A DNA stretch of 13,652 nucleotides from Candidatus Nanohalobium sp. (GTDB lineage Archaea > Nanohalarchaeota > Nanosalinia > Nanosalinales > Nanosalinaceae), in NCBI GenBank assembly GCA_042217555.1, contig JBDGSL010000069.1:1-13652 (forward strand). Direction: 5' to 3'. This document shows positions 2,188 through 12,054 of the stretch, in pieces. The notes beneath the pieces were generated by a model, which saw only the letters and a program-made list of their open reading frames with translations, was not told the DNA's origin and did no database searches. The position numbers and the translations under genes were made by a program. How positions within the stretch are numbered: position 1 is the stretch's first letter; every line of letters starts with the position of its first letter.

Positions 2188-3681
2188 ATGGATTTTGAGA
2201 GAGTTCCTAAGATAACGAAGTATATGGCACTGACGTCCTCTCCGCCCTGAAGGACGGAGGTTCCCAATAATGGAAACAACCATCCAAACACAACGGACTT
2301 CGGAACATCCGAAGCTTCAGAGGTTTACACTCCCCCTACCACACGCTTTGATATACAGGGAACATGCTTCCAACAAGGATTGTTCAAGACACCGCCAGCA
2401 GTGCCCCAGTACTACCAGCACCACCACATATTCAATGCGGCAGGAGTATAGCCCGGTCCCCAATCAATACAGATATCGGTTTAAACACTTAAAAACAGAC
2501 AGGGCGATTCCTCTCCGAGCTAAAACACGGAACCTCCTCACCCCAAACAGGTGAAAATGCTTTTTGCCTGGTTTGGCAGAAACACTGTATGGAACTTTCT
2601 ACCGGTTTTCTTCAAGAATAACATGGATTCCGTGTTTCTTGTAGGTGTCCTGACTTCGGTTCCGAGCTTTGTCACGATTTTGTTGGATATACCTGTAGGG
2701 AACCTGGTTCAGAGGGCTGGTGAGAAAGTTGTGATCTACATGGGTTTTATCTCTGCTCTTTTCCCTCCACTGTTATTTTACGCAGGTATCGTTCCAATGT
2801 TCTTCCTGGGAAAGTTTATGGAGGGGGTTGGCAAGGCGTTCATCTGGAACGGTGGCTGGAGCCTGATCTTGAAGAGCTCTGACAGTGATGTTGAGTCTGA
2901 AAATGTTTCAGTCTTCCTGCTGGGTGTTAATCTCTCTGTAATCATCGGCCCGATTATCGGAGGGTTTCTCTTGGCAGGTTACGGTTTTAACCTGCTTTTT
3001 ACTATCTGGGCTGGTACCTGGCTATTATCGATAGCATTGTACTATGCGTATATCGGTACTGAGAGAGGGGATGAGGGCCTGAAAGAAGGTCTGGATCACC
3101 TGGAGAGAAGAAGGACCTACATGGATGACTGGCATCACTTGAAGGATCACTGGATTGATCTGAGGAAGGTTCTCTCACTTACATTCCTGTACTCGATCAT
3201 CTTCTCGTTTTACTGGGTGGCGATACCTCTTATCCTTAACCAGATGAAGGCAGATTACACGATGATGGGCCTGGTATTCGGGGTAGCGGCTCTTCCAAAG
3301 GCCTTCCAGTTCGTGTTCGGAGACATGGCTGACAAGTATGGTGAGGAGAGAATCATAGCAGCTATGTCTTTCCTTCTTATCCCGACACTGTTTTCGATGT
3401 CTTTAACTGAAAGTAAACTTTTGATCGGAGGCCTCTTCTTTATGGCACAGCTCTTTACCTCGGGTATTGTCCCTGCAGTACACTCCAAGTTTGACTCTGC
3501 GATCCCGGATGATATAGAGGGCGAGATGACAGGTTTCAATGAACTGGCGAAGCACAGTGGGCAGACGATTGGGCCTGTTCTTGCCGGCACACTTGCCTCG
3601 ATCTGGAGTATCAAAGCCTCTTTTATGGCTGCAGCAGGTGTGACTGCTTTAATCCTGATAACCACATTAGTTGATTTTTGA
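2188..3681 (+). CDS. MFS transporter interrupted after codon 14 by a 321-bp element (join 2188..2229, 2551..3681; 390 aa restored)
   Basis: About 12 hydrophobic segments with MFS motif-A-like loops (GNLVQRAGEK, GDMADKYGEER) and IGPIIGG/IGPVLAG. The upstream ATG at 2188 gives MDFERVPKITKYMA in the same frame as VKMLFAWFGRN. With the element present, reading from 2188 stops at TGA 2248. The gene is either disrupted or expressed from GTG 2551 / ATG 2557. Confidence 0.9.
2230..2465 (-). ncRNA. Putative structured RNA (TnpB omega-RNA/reRNA-like) inside the element
   Basis: Several stems pair well only on the minus strand because they use G-U pairs (2394-2419; 2456-2461 with 2358-2363; 2439-2446 with 2333-2340). 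There is a perfect hairpin at 2298-2314, TATA-like boxes upstream, and the region ends at the IS right end. Folding was by eye and boundaries are approximate. Confidence 0.6.
2480..2495 (-). promoter_or_regulatory. TATA-like promoter inside the element
   Basis: Minus-strand TTTTTAAG (2488-2495) and TTTAAA (2480-2485) lie about 20-30 nt upstream of the first stem. The same motifs precede genes at 6303, 7654 and 12164. Confidence 0.5.
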
Positions 3682-4436: not shown

Positions 4437-5294
4437 TTACCTGTTGATCTCCTGCCATACCTGGAAGAAAGACTGGAAGAACTCCTCTCCTGTGGATATA
4501 CGTGTGTATTTTGCGTTGTTCTTTGCTGCTGTCTCTTCAAGTTTTCTTGTGTGCTGTGTCAACCTGTCTTTGTACCTGTTCTTAACTTTTTTCGACAGGT
4601 ATGTCCTGATACTGGAGCTTGATTCCGGGTCTTCAAGTATCTTGTCTCCTTCCATCTCTGGAGATATTTCCTGCTGTGAAAGAGTGTTTACAAGCAGTAC
4701 GTCGCATTCCTGAAGGTTTTTCACTGCATCTTCTACCTTCTTCACGTCTACCAGGAAGTCAGATAGTATGACTACCACCGACTTGTTTTTTATTCTTGAG
4801 GAGTATTCTGTAAGGCATTCTGCTACCTGGCTTTCAGGTGTTTTCCTCAGTTCGTTCAGGGTTTCAACCAGCTGTGTAAGGTTGCCGTGTCTGCGGGCTG
4901 ATGTAAGATCTGTAAGTGTCTCTGAGAAGACAGAGTACCGGAATCTGTCGTTGGTCTTGTTGGCCATGTATGCAAGTGCCAGGCCGAGTTTTGCAGCGTA
5001 CTCGTATTTGTTGACTTCTCCATAGTCCATGGAGCTGCTTCTGTCAACTACGACGTGAACTGTGACGTTTTTTTCCTCCTGAAATCTCTTGATGAAGTAT
5101 TCGCCTGTACGTGCGTAGGCCTTCCAGTCCATCTTTCTGATGTCGTCGCCTGGAACGTACTCCTTGTGATCCTTGAATATCATTCCCTGACCGGAATAAT
5201 CTGATTTCTGTTCTCCTTGCCGTATCTCAGCCGAGTTCTTCTTCAGCGCCCGGTGAAACCGATCTAATTCATCCAGGAAATCTATCTCTATCAC
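4437..5294 (-). CDS. DUF58 domain protein (vWA-like MoxR partner)
   Basis: GQGMIFKDHKEYVPGDDIRKMDWKAYART, VDRSSSMDYG and VVILSDFL are DUF58 signatures. It lies directly downstream of MoxR. Confidence 0.93.
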   Translation of the reverse strand: MIEIDFLDELDRFHRALKKNSAEIRQGEQKSDYSGQGMIFKDHKEYVPGDDIRKMDWKAYARTGEYFIKRFQEEKNVTVHVVVDRSSSMDYGEVNKYEYAAKLGLALAYMANKTNDRFRYSVFSETLTDLTSARRHGNLTQLVETLNELRKTPESQVAECLTEYSSRIKNKSVVVILSDFLVDVKKVEDAVKNLQECDVLLVNTLSQQEISPEMEGDKILEDPESSSSIRTYLSKKVKNRYKDRLTQHTRKLEETAAKNNAKYTRISTGEEFFQSFFQVWQEINR

Positions 5295-5337
5295 TGATTT
5301 ACACCTTTCTGAGTTATTCTGAACAGTTTTTCTCTCT

Positions 5338-6303
5338 TCATTGTTCCTCTACAATCTGTTCAACTACTTTGTCCTCTGTCAGGCCTTCCTTCTCTGCCTT
5401 GAAGCTGATTCCTATCCTGTGTCTGAGTACGGGTTTTGCCATGGCGTCGATATCACTTTCGGAAACATGGTTTCTTCCCTCTATCAATGCTCTTCCCTTC
5501 GCTGCCAGTACAAGGTTGATCGAGGCACGTGGAGAAGCACCGTAATCCAGTTCATCATTGCTGCGGGTGGCGGAGACTATCCTCACTGCTTTCTCCCTTA
5601 TGTCATCGGCTACAGGCACCTTTCTCGTGAACTCCTGCAGCTTGATCAGGGAGGAGCGGGAAAGCACTTTTTCCAGTTCCGGACTGTAATCCAGTTCCGA
5701 TGTGAAACGGTCGACAATACGGTTCTCATCTTCCATGTCCGGGTAATCCAGTTCTATCTTCATCATGAAACGATCTCTCTGCGCTTCCGGCAACGGGTAC
5801 GTTCCCTCCTGTTCGATAGGGTTCTGGGTTGCCATCAGGAAGAAAGGATCATCCAGGCTGTAGGAGTTGTTTCCGACAGTCACCTGTTTCTCCTGCATCG
5901 CCTCAAGAAGTGCGGACTGCGTCTTCGGTGTCGCCCTGTTTATCTCGTCAGCCAGAACCATGTTAGCGAAGATAGGGCCTTTCTGGAAAACGAAATCCGT
6001 TGTCTCACTGGACTCATCGATTATATGCGTACCTGTGATATCCGAAGGCATAAGATCCGGTGTACTCTGTATACGTGAGAATTCAAGGCCTAAAACCTTT
6101 GAGATCGTGGAAACCATCTTGGTCTTTCCCATGCCCGGGTTAGACTCAAGCAGTACGTTCCCATCACACAGTACGGATACCAGTACCTGTTCTATGACTT
6201 CTTCCTGTCCCACCATCACTTTCCGTACTTCCTCTTTGACCTTTGCCAGTTTCTCGTTCGCTTTCTCGTACTTTCCAACGTCATCCGTGCGTTTCAGCTT
6301 CAT
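5338..6303 (-). CDS. moxR: MoxR-family AAA+ ATPase
   Basis: Walker A ESNPGMGKT, RIQSTPDLMPSDITG, Walker B LADEINRATPKTQSALLEAMQE, ATQNPIEQEGTYPLPEAQRDRF, GASPRAS and VLRHRI. Confidence 0.96.
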   Translation of the reverse strand: MKLKRTDDVGKYEKANEKLAKVKEEVRKVMVGQEEVIEQVLVSVLCDGNVLLESNPGMGKTKMVSTISKVLGLEFSRIQSTPDLMPSDITGTHIIDESSETTDFVFQKGPIFANMVLADEINRATPKTQSALLEAMQEKQVTVGNNSYSLDDPFFLMATQNPIEQEGTYPLPEAQRDRFMMKIELDYPDMEDENRIVDRFTSELDYSPELEKVLSRSSLIKLQEFTRKVPVADDIREKAVRIVSATRSNDELDYGASPRASINLVLAAKGRALIEGRNHVSESDIDAMAKPVLRHRIGISFKAEKEGLTEDKVVEQIVEEQ

Positions 6304-7563: not shown

Positions 7564-7653
7564 CTCTACATCAACAATGGTTTCCGGCCGGTTTTAACTT
7601 TTTAGACAGTATACTATTTTTAAGTAGAAGCAGTTTCAATTACTTTCTTGAAT

Positions 7654-9300
7654 ATGAGCCATGGAGGCAGCCTTCCAGACACCTGCAAGTTCGGACACAT
7701 AATCGAGTCCGAGGGAGGAAACAAAGGATTGAAGAAAAAGATCAGGAAAGGAGAAATAGAAACCCTGTCCGACCTGAGAGAAGAAGACGCAGGCATAATA
7801 GACCTTCTGGGAAAATGGAAACACATCAAGGTATCTGCAGGAAGCCAGGGAGACGGTTTCAAAGCCGTATTTATCGCTGTAGACGAACTTGATACAGGTA
7901 AAGACTTCAATACTCACAAAGTAGACGAGTCTATACATATATCGCCACAAAGCAATTTTCACAGCGAGTTCATGCAGAGGAAGCAGCAGGCCGAGCAGAA
8001 TATCAAGCAGACGATGCAGAGCTACCAGCAGCTTATAAAGCAGAAGCACATGCTGGAACACGATGTCAGAAAACTGAGGAGCCGTGTAGAGGCGATAGAG
8101 TCAAAGGATGAGACATTGCTTAAAGGCGACTTTATCGAGCTTGTGGACGGCGCCGGACAGAGCCCACGTCAGGGAGGCGACCAGATGAGTTTGAAGGCGT
8201 ACCGCGACCAGAACATCTATCCTTCTATCGTAGCGGACTTCAACGAGATGGAATCTGTAGACGACCTGAAGACAGCCAAGCAGAAGGCCGAGGATGCAGA
8301 AGACAAAGACCCTGAGGACTTCAGGGACGGCGCGCTAGCTGAACTGCCGACGAACGAGAAAGCTGTGTTGAAGAAGAAGTACAGGATGTACCAGCAGTGG
8401 AAAGACCTGTACGGTTCAGAAGTCTCCCGGAAACTGGACGAACTGAAAGGCCAGCTGAGGAACGTGGAACGAAGTATCGAGGAGACAAAAGAATGGCTTA
8501 AGCCGTACGTCAGGGACGTATCGATGATAAACAAGATGGGTGACGACCAGGCAAATCTGACAGGCCCAACCAATATACGTGGAAACTCTACGATGATCAG
8601 AAGCCTGGACTACATACTGTACAAAGGTATGCGGCTGGAAGACGGAGAACTGACGTATGCAGAAGGCGAGGAAGCCACACATTACAGAGTAGTATACATC
8701 AAAGGAGTTAACGCCAACCTGGCCGGGTTTTCACAGCCACAGTCACCAGCTGAAGGACCTTCCGCAGGCATCGTCCAATGGTTCCCGGCGTTCGTATGCA
8801 AACACGTGTTCGAGAACATATTCAAGCCAAGAATCAACGAACACGAAAACAAAGTAGAGGAAGTTATGGAAGACTATGTCGGAGGATTCAAACCCTCCAA
8901 AGAAGGAAAAACACTCAGAGATAAACGCCAGGAAGAAGAGATGTCAGTAAGAGAACTCAGAGAAAAAATAGAGGAAGAACTAGAGGAAGAAAACGTACCT
9001 GTAGAGCTCTCAGCCCAGATAAGACGGATAGAAGACGGTATGGAACCTGTCAACACTCTTAACGGAAAATACCTGGAAGCCATAGACAGCATACTTGACA
9101 CCGAGTTCACAGAAGACGAAGACAACAGAGACAATGAAATGGTCAGCGGACTGCAGGAAAAACTTCTGAAGTTCACAGGGAAAACCGACCCCTTCTACAT
9201 GGAAAACCCTGAACAAGGCCTGATAGAACACGAAGTAGACCTCAGATACGACTACTACTGGGGATTCAAAATAGGCCTCGGACTTTACACAATGAAGTGA
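7654..9300 (+). CDS. Uncharacterised coiled-coil protein (548 aa) with an XRE-like HTH near the C-terminus
   Basis: Long ORF; ATG 7654 is preferred over TTG 7648, with TATA-like TTTTTAAG at about 7617-7624. It has two coiled-coil stretches and the segment GKTLRDKRQEEEMSVRELREKI...SAQIRRIEDG. Confidence 0.85.
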   Translation: MSHGGSLPDTCKFGHIIESEGGNKGLKKKIRKGEIETLSDLREEDAGIIDLLGKWKHIKVSAGSQGDGFKAVFIAVDELDTGKDFNTHKVDESIHISPQSNFHSEFMQRKQQAEQNIKQTMQSYQQLIKQKHMLEHDVRKLRSRVEAIESKDETLLKGDFIELVDGAGQSPRQGGDQMSLKAYRDQNIYPSIVADFNEMESVDDLKTAKQKAEDAEDKDPEDFRDGALAELPTNEKAVLKKKYRMYQQWKDLYGSEVSRKLDELKGQLRNVERSIEETKEWLKPYVRDVSMINKMGDDQANLTGPTNIRGNSTMIRSLDYILYKGMRLEDGELTYAEGEEATHYRVVYIKGVNANLAGFSQPQSPAEGPSAGIVQWFPAFVCKHVFENIFKPRINEHENKVEEVMEDYVGGFKPSKEGKTLRDKRQEEEMSVRELREKIEEELEEENVPVELSAQIRRIEDGMEPVNTLNGKYLEAIDSILDTEFTEDEDNRDNEMVSGLQEKLLKFTGKTDPFYMENPEQGLIEHEVDLRYDYYWGFKIGLGLYTMK

Positions 9301-9306
9301 AACACA

Positions 9307-12054
9307 ATGGACTTCATACTGAAACGGTTAAAAGACAAGTTTGGAGACGAAGAAGGAGACGAAGAAAGAAACGGTTTCCCCGACCTAAACTACCTGATCG
9401 GAGAATCATCCGCAATGGACATGGGAGAGTTCCCAACACCAATGGACCAGAGAATAGGACAGGCATCAATGGTAGGCGGAGAACTGATGGAACTCCAGAT
9501 CACCAACCCCGCCACATTCGAACTGGAAGGCAACTCCATGATAAGAACCATCGACCAGCTCGGCCTCGACGTAACACTCCACCCAGACATGAACGCAGGA
9601 TTCTGCACAGCAGAAAAAAGCGCCAGAGGAGAAGAATACGGCTACGACACAGTCGAACAATACTTCACAAACTACCTACAAGAACTCGCATACTTCAAAA
9701 AAAGAGTCCAAGAACAAGGCGGAGAAAAACCCTTATTCAACATCGGCCGAATGAACCCACACATATCCACCTCCCCAATGCCTCCTCTCGACGAAAGAAT
9801 GGCCAACGACGTAGGAGTAGACCCATTCGGATTCGAGATAGGCAACGGAGACCAAGACGCGATGAAAGCCAGAAACCACAGAGGGCAAAACATCTGGGAA
9901 AACAAAGAGTTCCTCAAACGAGTATACTACACATTCTTCGTAGAAGAAGTAGAATTCGCATTCCAATACTACAGCATGTTCGGCCGATACTCAAACAAAT
10001 TCGAAAAAATATGGGAAGACGCACAGAGAGAAGCTACAAATAAATTCTACAAACACAGAACCGAACAACTACCTGATAGATTATACAATGAAGTTCAAGA
10101 GAAAATCAAGATTCTAAGGACTGCTCAGGCACAAGATAGAGGGATAGAAACCGACTGGTTGGACATACTAGACGATAAGACAATCCAATTTCCTTTCTAT
10201 ACTGTGGTCACTGAGTCCAAAACGGAGGAATTCGAAGATCCTACCGGCAATACTAGAGAAAGAATATCAGAAGTAGAAATTACAGACATACAAACAGAGT
10301 ATCGAGAAGTTCCTCCAGAATTCCTAAGAGAAAGAGGCTTCCGAAGCTTCCAGCAAATGTCTCAAGCCGTTCACAGTGTAGAAAACATGAATCAGATACC
10401 GCAAGAAATGTTCGAAAACATAATAGTCGATATCATAGACGAAAACGACGTAGACGTCAGCCATTTATTGAGGCTTGGCGCCAGGGATACTTTAGACGAG
10501 AAATTTGCCGAAGACATGGATAAAACACGTGAAAGTCTCTATAATTCACTCAAGTCAGGTTTTAACGAGCTTTGGACCGGCGATGAAATAATTTCCATAG
10601 ACGCAAAAATAGCAGCTCTAGAGAATCATCACGATATTCAACCGAGAAGGATTCAGGAGATTGCGTATGAGGTTGGTATTGAGGGAGATAAGACGTTAGA
10701 TCATCATGCTGAGAAAGTTTTCATGGGAGAGCCTGAGTATTTCGAGACGGAGGGGCCGGAGGAGGATCTGGAGCTTGACAAGCATAAGGAGCTTTTGAAG
10801 AACCTGATTCAGAACTTTGAAAGGGAGATGTGGAAGGAGTCGAATCTTTTCTACAAGATTATCCCGGCCTGGATGAGTCAGGCCAATAAGCTTCAAAACG
10901 ACAAGCATAACGGGTGGAAAGCACCAGAGTTCATCTGGGAAACTATCGTTGAGGACAAGTGGGAAGATCGTGACGACGTTAACCTGGATTTAACTTCTCC
11001 TCGTAATGGCATCTTTGACGACGATGACGAAGATACCTATCACTACCTTGATCTGTTGGAGGAGAGTGAGGAGTTCCGTATGGATGTGGCTGCGGCTGTC
11101 GGTGCTTGTTATGCGTGGGGGCATTATACGCAGAGGAAGGTTCAGTTTGATTTGAAGGGCCGTGACTTCGGTTTAAGTGATGAGGAGGCTCAGGAAGTTG
11201 AGGGCGAAGGCTGGACCTGGATCGAGTGGACGAACCGTTTTGGTCTTGGCGTGAATCTGGAGACTATGGCGGGCAGTCCTCAGATGCGTTTCAAGGTGTG
11301 GAGGCCGAAGGATATCTCTGTGACAGCTCATGCCATCAACCTTACTGCCAGGACCAAGCTGGAGAGGGATGGTGAGCTAGGTGGATTAGATCATATGCAT
11401 GAGGAGTTGGATGGGTGTCCTGCGAAGTTCACGATCGATATGGAGCATGTAGCGACTTTGGGCGCGCCGCCTATGCATGAGATGGAGGAGTTTATGCAGC
11501 AGGAGGAAGAGTTGGCAGGTTCCGACTGGAAGCTTGATATTGACGAGGATAAGCCTGTTGCCAAGATAATGAGGCAGATACATCTCATAGATCCTGGTGT
11601 AGAATCTCAGAGAGGAACACACCATGGAGCCATTGAGAGAGGGAACAGGCAACTTTACACGTGGCTTTACCGTTTTGTAGAAGAAGGATTTGCGCGTAAC
11701 GAAGACGAGCCTGCTACGATCCTCTTCGAACTTGCGGAACACAAGGGAGAGTCCAGCTACGTAATGAGGATTATGATGGATCTTATACAGCTTGGAGTAG
11801 AACCTGAAGACCTTGACCCCTCACGCGTCGACCCGGGCAGCAAACCAGGTTCAGAGGAGGAAGCACTTATCGCCCGCTTCTACGGAATCGACAGAACAAA
11901 CTACAACCGTGAATGGGCCAAGATAGAAGAACACGCATTCGACCCACTGAAAGGCTTGCTGGAAGCTGAAGAGTTTGACTACAGCTACTCAGGAAGAGCT
12001 GCAGTAGAGAACGACAACCGGCCGCAGGAATGGAATTCAGAGGAGTACCGGTAG
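9307..12054 (+). CDS. Large TIM-barrel protein of the xylose-isomerase-like / AP-endonuclease-2 superfamily, with a big internal insertion
   Basis: Strand-end motifs appear in superfamily order: VTLHPD, MNPHIS, [about 490 aa gap], VNLETM, FTIDMEHV, QIHLID, HHGAIERGN, ILFE. It starts 6 nt after the previous stop. Confidence 0.75.
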   Translation: MDFILKRLKDKFGDEEGDEERNGFPDLNYLIGESSAMDMGEFPTPMDQRIGQASMVGGELMELQITNPATFELEGNSMIRTIDQLGLDVTLHPDMNAGFCTAEKSARGEEYGYDTVEQYFTNYLQELAYFKKRVQEQGGEKPLFNIGRMNPHISTSPMPPLDERMANDVGVDPFGFEIGNGDQDAMKARNHRGQNIWENKEFLKRVYYTFFVEEVEFAFQYYSMFGRYSNKFEKIWEDAQREATNKFYKHRTEQLPDRLYNEVQEKIKILRTAQAQDRGIETDWLDILDDKTIQFPFYTVVTESKTEEFEDPTGNTRERISEVEITDIQTEYREVPPEFLRERGFRSFQQMSQAVHSVENMNQIPQEMFENIIVDIIDENDVDVSHLLRLGARDTLDEKFAEDMDKTRESLYNSLKSGFNELWTGDEIISIDAKIAALENHHDIQPRRIQEIAYEVGIEGDKTLDHHAEKVFMGEPEYFETEGPEEDLELDKHKELLKNLIQNFEREMWKESNLFYKIIPAWMSQANKLQNDKHNGWKAPEFIWETIVEDKWEDRDDVNLDLTSPRNGIFDDDDEDTYHYLDLLEESEEFRMDVAAAVGACYAWGHYTQRKVQFDLKGRDFGLSDEEAQEVEGEGWTWIEWTNRFGLGVNLETMAGSPQMRFKVWRPKDISVTAHAINLTARTKLERDGELGGLDHMHEELDGCPAKFTIDMEHVATLGAPPMHEMEEFMQQEEELAGSDWKLDIDEDKPVAKIMRQIHLIDPGVESQRGTHHGAIERGNRQLYTWLYRFVEEGFARNEDEPATILFELAEHKGESSYVMRIMMDLIQLGVEPEDLDPSRVDPGSKPGSEEEALIARFYGIDRTNYNREWAKIEEHAFDPLKGLLEAEEFDYSYSGRAAVENDNRPQEWNSEEYR

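Follow-up and report, generated by a model that had tools for sequence, protein, structure and literature searches.

The window that we analysed, a stretch of 13,652 nt that constitutes contig C66 of genome G000 (1.31 Mb, 94% complete) and is present in salt-lake metagenome runs, contains a 321-bp element without a protein gene. The small genome and its acidic proteins suggest a nanohaloarchaeon. With a probability of roughly 0.6, we explain the element as a recent PATE-like insertion with a conserved TnpB omega-RNA scaffold downstream of a TATA-like box, which would borrow both TnpA and the TnpB encoded on contig C1 of the same genome. A protein-free element with a promoter, a guide RNA of ~230 nt and a flank-derived guide had been proposed in a first-pass annotation of this DNA. 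Our analysis supports that proposal, and the left end, right end, TATA region, RNA length and guide boundary given there are confirmed. The element and its host gene comprise the following parts (window coordinates).

2230-2550, minus strand: whole protein-free IS200/IS605 element, 321 bp, identified by an empty-allele joint, the uninterrupted MFS gene of relatives and the lack of TnpA or TnpB similarity.
2551-2554, minus strand: target tetranucleotide TCAC outside the left end, predicted TAM, from the sequence.
2513-2536, minus strand: 4-nt DNA guide (2536-2533) and, directly after it, the left-end hairpin (2532-2513), from the sequence and the resemblance of this hairpin to that of the right end.
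2240-2263, minus strand: right-end hairpin with UUCA loop (2259-2240) and DNA guide GAAC (2263-2260), matched by right ends elsewhere.
2230-2234, minus strand: right-end terminus GUCAG, a transposon-encoded motif and 3' arm of a pseudoknot, from the empty-allele boundary and the pairing.
2210-2229, minus strand: host flank predicted from the sequence as guide, antisense to MFS codons 8-14.
2188-2229, plus strand: first 14 codons of the MFS gene, cut off from the rest, matching the N-terminus of 13 orthologues.
2551-3681, plus strand: rest of the MFS transporter gene, an ORF with a Pfam MFS_1 match (E = 6.5e-37).

One contig of metagenome run X2 joins position 2229 to 2551 and skips exactly 321 bases. 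This joint fixes the ends of the element, the evidence being borderline given the 30 letters on the short side of the joint. The empty allele has a depth of 5.2 compared with ~18-20 for the filled allele, and it is the empty MFS allele that the first pass had named as the target, seen in this one run. On the minus strand, it places the insertion 3' of TCAC without target duplication (2229/2551). From 2188 on, the sequence of the left flank is MDFERVPKITKYMA; host sequence continues on the right at 2551, and the element lies after codon 14 of the MFS gene, at a position where 13 of 13 orthologous loci have one unbroken frame. A restart of the MFS gene at 2551 or 2557 is possible. The residues around the insertion are KYMA-VKMLF (2218-2229, 2551-2562), as compared with KYLS-[ALV]-[VI]-[FY]-[LFM] in the 13 orthologues, and the lysine and the new ATG directly after GGTGA are perhaps an adaptation to an older insertion.

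Six-frame searches of the element detected no TnpB remnant (best E of 1.7 against a profile of 195 TnpB proteins) and no TnpA remnant (best E of 1.5), with a positive control at 2.7e-11. By these searches, the interior is not a decayed tnpA or tnpB gene. We take the 94-aa plus-strand ORF at 2270-2554 to be the antisense shadow of the RNA. An IStron or other self-splicing element was rejected, since no Rfam intron matches and the MFS sense strand folds no better than shuffles.

As in PATEs, a subterminal hairpin with a 4-nt DNA guide before it is present at either end. The right-end hairpin of the first pass is confirmed by 79.5% of paired cells in the alignment and by its matches to the right ends behind tnpB genes and of H. 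salinarum VNG_R6334. The rule by which the 4-nt DNA guide pairs with the target is known from IS608. TCAC is common to a second copy of the element (see below), the C1 element and 9 of 10 Thermococci-phylum elements. Of the TAM predicted earlier (TTCAC/TCAC), TCAC is the conserved target and putative TAM, and the fifth base is variable. The principle of DNA guide-target pairing is stated by Meers et al. (2023, bioRxiv 10.1101/2023.03.14.532601).

Elsewhere in the window, a conserved 113-aa protein is encoded at 1290-1631 on the minus strand (75-85% DNA identity in relatives), which has no Pfam match and looks histone-fold-like by eye. Two adjacent acidic proteins of 550 and 915 aa without Pfam matches are encoded on the plus strand (7648-9300 and 9307-12054), and MoxR-like ATPase and vWA-like genes, assigned by eye, lie nearby on the opposite strand (4437-6303).

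The RNA cassette has the following parts.

2230-2465, minus strand: predicted omega-RNA scaffold of about 235 nt, from its fold, homologues and alignment.
2488-2495, minus strand: TATA-like box TTTTTAAG, with the same motif and spacing in the window, C1 and G001.
2423-2441, minus strand: hairpin H1, loop UGAAU, with a pair probability of 0.92 and 6/7 pairs with changes in C1 and G001.
2386-2407, minus strand: hairpin H2, whose loop holds a pseudoknot arm, from the alignment and an alignment-free search.
2394-2398, minus strand: pseudoknot 5' arm CUGGC, pairing with 2234-2230, from covariation in 11 sequences.
2341-2367, minus strand: hairpin H3 with arms 2367-2361 and 2347-2341 and a bulged tip, from an RNAalifold consensus of three sequences with both-side changes.
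2298-2314, minus strand: hairpin of the first pass, with a pair probability of 0.95, 7/7 pairs with changes in C1, 5/7 in G001, and absent in shorter members.

A TTTWTAAG box lies 53-54 nt ahead of the H1 loop in the window, C1 and G001, and from this conserved spacing the RNA is predicted to start near 2465. The TATA region (2480-2497) is TATA-like on the plus strand too, the strand that would drive tnpB in the layout of the presumed parent, so the cassette may also promote transcription outward, toward the downstream gene. The minus strand folds better than its shuffles (z of -3.3), and the plus strand does not (z of -0.8). The G-U strand asymmetry that had been read as selection on RNA is largely compositional, since the mean energies of the shuffles are -82 (minus) and -56 kcal/mol (plus).

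In Rfam, the 3' half of the scaffold resembles HgcC (RF00062) with 34.6 bits (E of 6.4e-5), which is under the 50-bit gathering cut-off. By score the window RNA is therefore a relative of HgcC and not a member, and it is ~100 nt longer. No other family, including sot0042 (RF02656) and HEARO, matches the element at E <= 1, with the exception of snoR53Y on the plus strand at E 0.3; sot0042 itself matches halobacterial loci only. The comparison with Rfam and omega-RNA models proposed in the first pass thus gives an HgcC-like RNA below the cut-off, with a pseudoknot as in published omega-RNAs.

Homologous RNAs are found in G000 itself, on contigs C1, C12, C15 and C29, and the others come from relatives. 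A sequence-only model matched 9 of the 70 genomes of the class, with a gain of two sequences beyond the seed. Conservation halts at the right-end terminus in all homologues and gives way to a variable flank, a feature of omega-RNAs. The 26 loci that a gapped pattern picked out in metagenome contigs include no homologue, and of 39 loci with a 16-nt motif in viral contigs, not one fits the RNA model. BLAST searches of plasmids and phages returned right-end hairpins and nothing more.

We aligned 11 sequences with MAFFT, fitted to no structure and with the kinship among the sequences inflating the pair counts; C76 was omitted from the alignments as too divergent. The pseudoknot between 2398-2394 and 2234-2230 is paired in 55 of 55 cells. 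Two of its five pairs changed on both sides, one changed on one side and two are invariant. None of 500 shuffles reaches its covariation score, whereas 82 of 500 reach the count of both-side changes, and the covariation at the terminal pair may stem from as few as one or two events among kin. An alignment-free search, which 2-17% of random tails would match, finds the pseudoknot loop in 10 of the 11 members. The exception is L130, whose 5-mer pairs and for which the hairpin search finds no stem. The same search finds the loop in seven of nine Thermococci-phylum RNAs at stem 6 and in two more at stem 5, as well as in H. salinarum and N. magadii, where a third pair type occurs; it gave no match in C76 or L111. 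The covariation that the first pass looked for is thus present, and it shows, at the level of sequence, a loop-to-terminus pseudoknot.

All 8 pairs of H2 are formed in the window, C1, G001 and L127 with compensatory changes, and 7 of 8 in C29b. In the remaining six MAFFT rows H2 is out of register (3-4/8), and the alignment-free search recovers five of these. By eye, other members also have hairpins around the H1 loop motif. As pseudoknot partner, the UGAAU loop of H1 was considered and rejected, as it does not covary with the terminus, unlike the H2 loop. Variation within the population bears on the same helices: X2 variants at 85% likeness (2364, 2408 and 2423) in three of three cases turn a G-U pair of H3, H2 and H1 into G-C, the 2364 variant by a change of U-G to C-G in H3. 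The nominal p is 0.005 for a post hoc test with near-identical variants, two of them on one contig, and the pair 2408-2385 was taken from the single-sequence fold and not from the consensus. The variant positions are unpaired in the earlier structure model.

The sequence motifs named in that model are all in place and can pair as written, and its hairpin at 2314-2298 is borne out by the values listed above, including those for the C1 paralogue. Three of its five helices find no such support. The GGGGAC/GTTCCC stem (2461/2358) has a pair probability of 0.00 and 0-5 of 6 pairs in homologues. The proposed CTCCTGCC/GGTAGGGG pseudoknot is complete (8/8 pairs) in the window, while each of the 10 homologues forms 0-2 of the 8 pairs, with the columns partly gapped in distant members; its pair probability of 0.04 is a weak argument, since the folding model excludes pseudoknots and the supported pseudoknot scores 0.06. 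The GCTGGTAGT/ACTGCTGGC stem (2419/2394) has a probability of 0.32 and 1-6 of 9 pairs, and it competes with hairpin H2 and the supported pseudoknot. Such helices are cheap, since the window RNA has 42 possible 8-bp G-U-tolerant helices compared with a shuffle mean of 27. The earlier structure as a whole, which includes two true hairpins and fits the window row perfectly by construction, still beats column shuffles.

By analogy with TnpB biology, the flank at 2210-2229 would serve as the guide of this RNA. The filled right junction reads TCAG, not TCAC, and genome G000 holds no further TCAC+12-nt seed site for the guide. Among 54 viral 16-mer matches to the guide, none adjoins the target motif and none covers all 20 nt. 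These results weigh against the suggestion of the first pass that dispersed copies form a distributed guide array, which we considered in the form of a domesticated array with selected targets. G000 does contain five or more protein-free RNA elements, and their flanks differ. However, each guide is the element's own flank, the orphan RNAs are 47-55% identical to the window RNA and have a different terminal motif, and the insertion is absent from relatives, so that a purposeful array is the least probable of the explanations that we considered.

The predicted guide is antisense to MFS codons 8-14; the first pass had described the RNA as antisense to the MFS 5' end, but what it overlaps is a frame interrupted by the element and not an intact gene. 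The RNA could in principle be a regulator, either as a decoy for TnpB or TnpA or as an antisense RNA to MFS read-through transcripts. By its sequence, it would be complementary to any transcript reading through from the MFS promoter, and Gomes-Filho et al. (2015, PMC4615843) speculated about a role of PATE RNAs as TnpA competitors. We nevertheless consider regulation highly improbable and the antisense role unsupported: the antisense position follows from the orientation of the insertion, the second copy sits at an unrelated gene, and the element is missing from the MFS gene in 13 of 13 relatives.

The evidence for a second copy comes from run X1, possibly the source of assembly G000. In this run, unitig 2230-2558 has a depth of 64.5 compared with ~39 for its flanks, and the right-end 30-mer recurs unchanged on another contig (depth 38.8), where it adjoins a different flank. 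In addition, contig C23 of G000 ends on the same 8-nt target as the window, a TCAC site. From the excess depth, the other flank and the C23 end, it is very likely that a second, collapsed copy exists. Its site lies 6 nt ahead of the start codon of the unrelated gene; no placement of its right flank was found in the G000 assembly. The 8 nt that both insertion sites have in common (window 2551-2558 and the C23 end), ATTTTCAC, extend four past the core target and possibly reflect an extended pairing between left end and target. G000 has one Y1 tnpA, intact-looking and located on contig C11, and the same element type occurs in two congeners, with right ends 85-88% alike over 34 nt. The element would probably be mobilised by Y1 TnpA in trans, and the putative second copy would imply recent movement.

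The first pass had also called for a homologous RNA linked to tnpB, and such a pair is present on contig C1. The C1 RNA is the closest to that of the window, with 68% identity over 215 nt (62-68% overall) and a z of 13.1 compared with 1.7-9.8 for the others, and it ends at the right end of its element (C1:44945). The C1 tnpB gene (C1:45223-46317), intact-looking and coding for 364 aa, is on the opposite strand and starts ~50 nt past the 5' end of the RNA. The tnpB gene is thereby upstream of and divergent from the RNA, and beyond it lies a left end in inverted orientation whose target is TCAC. The protein keeps Asp180, Glu268 and Asp348 (D180, E268 and D348), which are invariant in 23 homologues, as well as the zinc finger, and is probably catalytically intact. 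The complete inverted-tnpB element (G000:C1:44945-46351; L008/L062) lies on the stop codon of a GTP-binding protein gene, where its right end supplies a new TGA, and the orthologous site in G002 (L034) is empty.

G001 has the inverted layout at another site, with a broken tnpB gene. All 10 loci of a related group, in 8 of 133 Thermococci-phylum genomes, share this layout, and HgcC is found above the cut-off beside three of the four inverted Thermococci-phylum tnpB genes tested. In a quick tree, a branch with SH-aLRT 99 separates the 11 inverted TnpBs from 13 labelled canonical, of which two are probably IS607-type; 25 proteins without DNA were left out of the count. By this tree, the inverted layout appears to mark one TnpB clade. 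The canonical layout, with an RNA co-oriented with tnpB and overlapping its 3' end, is absent from the window, which has no tnpB, and from its closest relative, and distant homologues of the RNA lie behind the canonical tnpB genes L065, L067 and L069. Scans with the TnpB alignment gave two close loci of 23 in genomes and none of seven in viruses, and the TnpBs found by tblastn in plasmids are all below 35% identity. We did not find the inverted tnpB layout in the literature searched, although supplements may cover it.

Many unplaced TnpB relatives have an N-terminal extension that is the RNA read antisense. The antisense strand of these RNAs is often open and in phase with TnpB, and gene callers add 55-90 spurious N-terminal residues; cases are the window frame 2270-2554 (plus strand) and P0002, P0004, P0006-P0008, P0020, P0022, P0029-P0031, P0033 and P0035-P0038. 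The spurious extension is a convenient marker of the inverted layout.

In two further TnpB elements of G000 (C11 and C12), the left end points by eye to TTAT, an assignment for which we assume the DNA-guide pairing rule. The genome also has TnpB elements at C1:40497 and C75, and among those whose left end could be read (the inverted C1 element, C11 and C12), the C1 TnpB is the only one shown to share TCAC.

The window element likely originated from an element of the inverted-tnpB clade. Since tnpB is on the opposite strand there and the RNA is already a separate gene, loss of tnpB leaves a complete cassette. The C1 element is a relative rather than the direct parent, because the two RNAs have no more than 62-68% identity and the left-end hairpins are not alike, and its TnpB may not load the window RNA. 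The window RNA also has a 20-nt stretch in common with the canonical-orientation omega-RNA L065, which counts against the favoured explanation.

Several of these observations would also fit a passive mini-element, moved by TnpA in trans, whose RNA is used by no TnpB in the cell and whose fold is intact because tnpB was lost recently or the element came from another host. One third of the window RNA differs from the C1 RNA, the left end is unlike that of C1, other orphan scaffolds lack partners, and the inverted-element copy of G001 is already decaying. Closer parents also seem to exist: read antisense, the window RNA matches the spurious N-terminus added to P0022 (62% over 24 aa). Nevertheless, the promoter spacing and all core helices are kept, the population variants stabilise helices, and a TnpB of the right clade and target is encoded in the same genome. 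We therefore regard passive transposition as rather unlikely, and as the strongest competitor of the reading in which the RNA works with the C1 TnpB in trans.

The apparently protein-free elements at G000:C12:~34790-35154, C15:3965-~4345 and C29:21670-~22060, and those at L127 and L130, also carry long omega-RNA scaffolds of the same family. A cognate TnpB of the L065, L067 or L069 type for the C12, C15 and C29 elements was not found in the 94%-complete G000. Scaffolds of such type may persist without a partner, which counts against the trans reading. The three elements (C12:35135-35154, C15:3965 and C29:21670) terminate in TCAC, which is the TAM predicted for the C1 TnpB. Should this TnpB accept their RNAs, the filled right junctions of these elements would become self-targets. 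A further stretch of ~420 bp between IS605-like ends (G000:C29:~39480-39900; L121) has an unrelated interior with no match to the RNA model and adjoins tRNA-like sequence.

In the explanation that we favour, transcription would begin near 2465, cross the right end and stop ~16-20 nt into the flank, and the RNA would load the C1 TnpB in trans. Y1 TnpA would excise the element as single-stranded DNA and rejoin the flanks. The loaded complex would then cut TCAC+flank, which is present only after excision or in empty chromosomes, and spare the TCAG junction. Repair from a filled copy would restore the element and hence retain it at its site, as Meers et al. (2023, bioRxiv 10.1101/2023.03.14.532601) describe for Geobacillus elements. 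The empty allele that persists in X2 counts against retention by TnpB.

We examined the insertion sites of 12 inverted loci, 11 of which have both ends. Read on the tnpB strand, the inverted elements begin with CTGA, with GTGA beyond (GTGG at one locus). At 7 of 11 loci, an upstream frame of 226-441 codons stops at the TGA of CTGA; 7 of 11 have an ATG 4-6 nt past GTGA, and in most Thermococci-phylum loci the left end gives a purine-rich run ahead of GTGA. Either a stop or a ribosome-binding-site context is present at 10 of 11 and both at 4 of 11, compared with an either-context background of 7.3% of 7875 GTGA sites in G000 and 26 of 270 in Thermococci-phylum loci. By their sequence, the ends of the inverted elements would rebuild host stop codons or ribosome-binding sites at 10 of 11 loci. 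Much of this enrichment could result from purifying selection against insertions that are disruptive, and the scored set consists of inverted elements. The window copy is an exception to this pattern, as it sits inside a gene, with an ATG only 2 nt beyond GTGA.

A wider and tentative reading, which we consider somewhat unlikely, is that an archaeal TnpB clade separated the nuclease from its guide RNA, now encoded back to back, as a form of stealth insertion, and sheds active guide cassettes because the RNA gene is self-contained. The target on the tnpB strand would be the GTGA common to TGA stops and archaeal ribosome-binding sites, so that the right end would restore the stop and the left end the ribosome-binding site while the inverted tnpB rides in the host operon. 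Shed cassettes, fully promoted, would home to empty alleles with one shared TnpB, and the leftover divergent promoter may restart the downstream host gene.

Trans-acting, guide-bearing protein-free elements are already published. Protein-free IS200/IS605 elements with omega-RNAs that need TnpB in trans are described by Meers et al. (2023, bioRxiv 10.1101/2023.03.14.532601), and H. salinarum VNG_R6334, which is expressed, and sotRNAs by Gomes-Filho et al. (2015, PMC4615843). Like the PATEs of Meers et al., the window element has left and right ends and no protein gene, with TnpB and TnpA presumably both in trans. Unlike those bacterial elements from Geobacillus, it is archaeal, has a TATA box and has a likely parent whose tnpB faces away from the RNA. 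It shares with VNG_R6334 the left end, a short promoter region, a long RNA, the loop-to-terminus pseudoknot and the right-end UUCA hairpin (89% over 36 nt). The interior of VNG_R6334 differs in being sot0042-like and its terminus is TCAA instead of TCAG; its RNA ends 18 nt into the flank past the right end, whereas the window RNA is predicted from sequence. The pseudoknot is the one described for H. salinarum omega-RNAs in PMC12558985 and parallels that of ISDra2 (PMC10097598). As reported there, haloarchaeal and ISDra2 omega-RNAs overlap the 3' end of tnpB, in contrast to the window and C1 RNAs, which are separate genes with a promoter-like box. Standalone omega-RNAs without this overlap are reviewed in PMC10691335, and Phok et al. 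(2011, PMC3124441) describe P. abyssi sRk48/52 and sRkB/C as promoter-driven repeated RNAs related to OrfB elements.

The cassette adds a clean archaeal example to this known class. As a recent, polymorphic element with probably two copies, one candidate TnpA and one candidate TnpB, it offers a natural test of trans-acting TnpB guides. The inverted layout gives HgcC RNAs, long unassigned, a partner, and a TnpB with a separate RNA gene needs no processing of the RNA out of its own mRNA. The C1 element would represent such a naturally non-overlapping pair, a 364-aa nuclease and its RNA with a predicted TCAC TAM.
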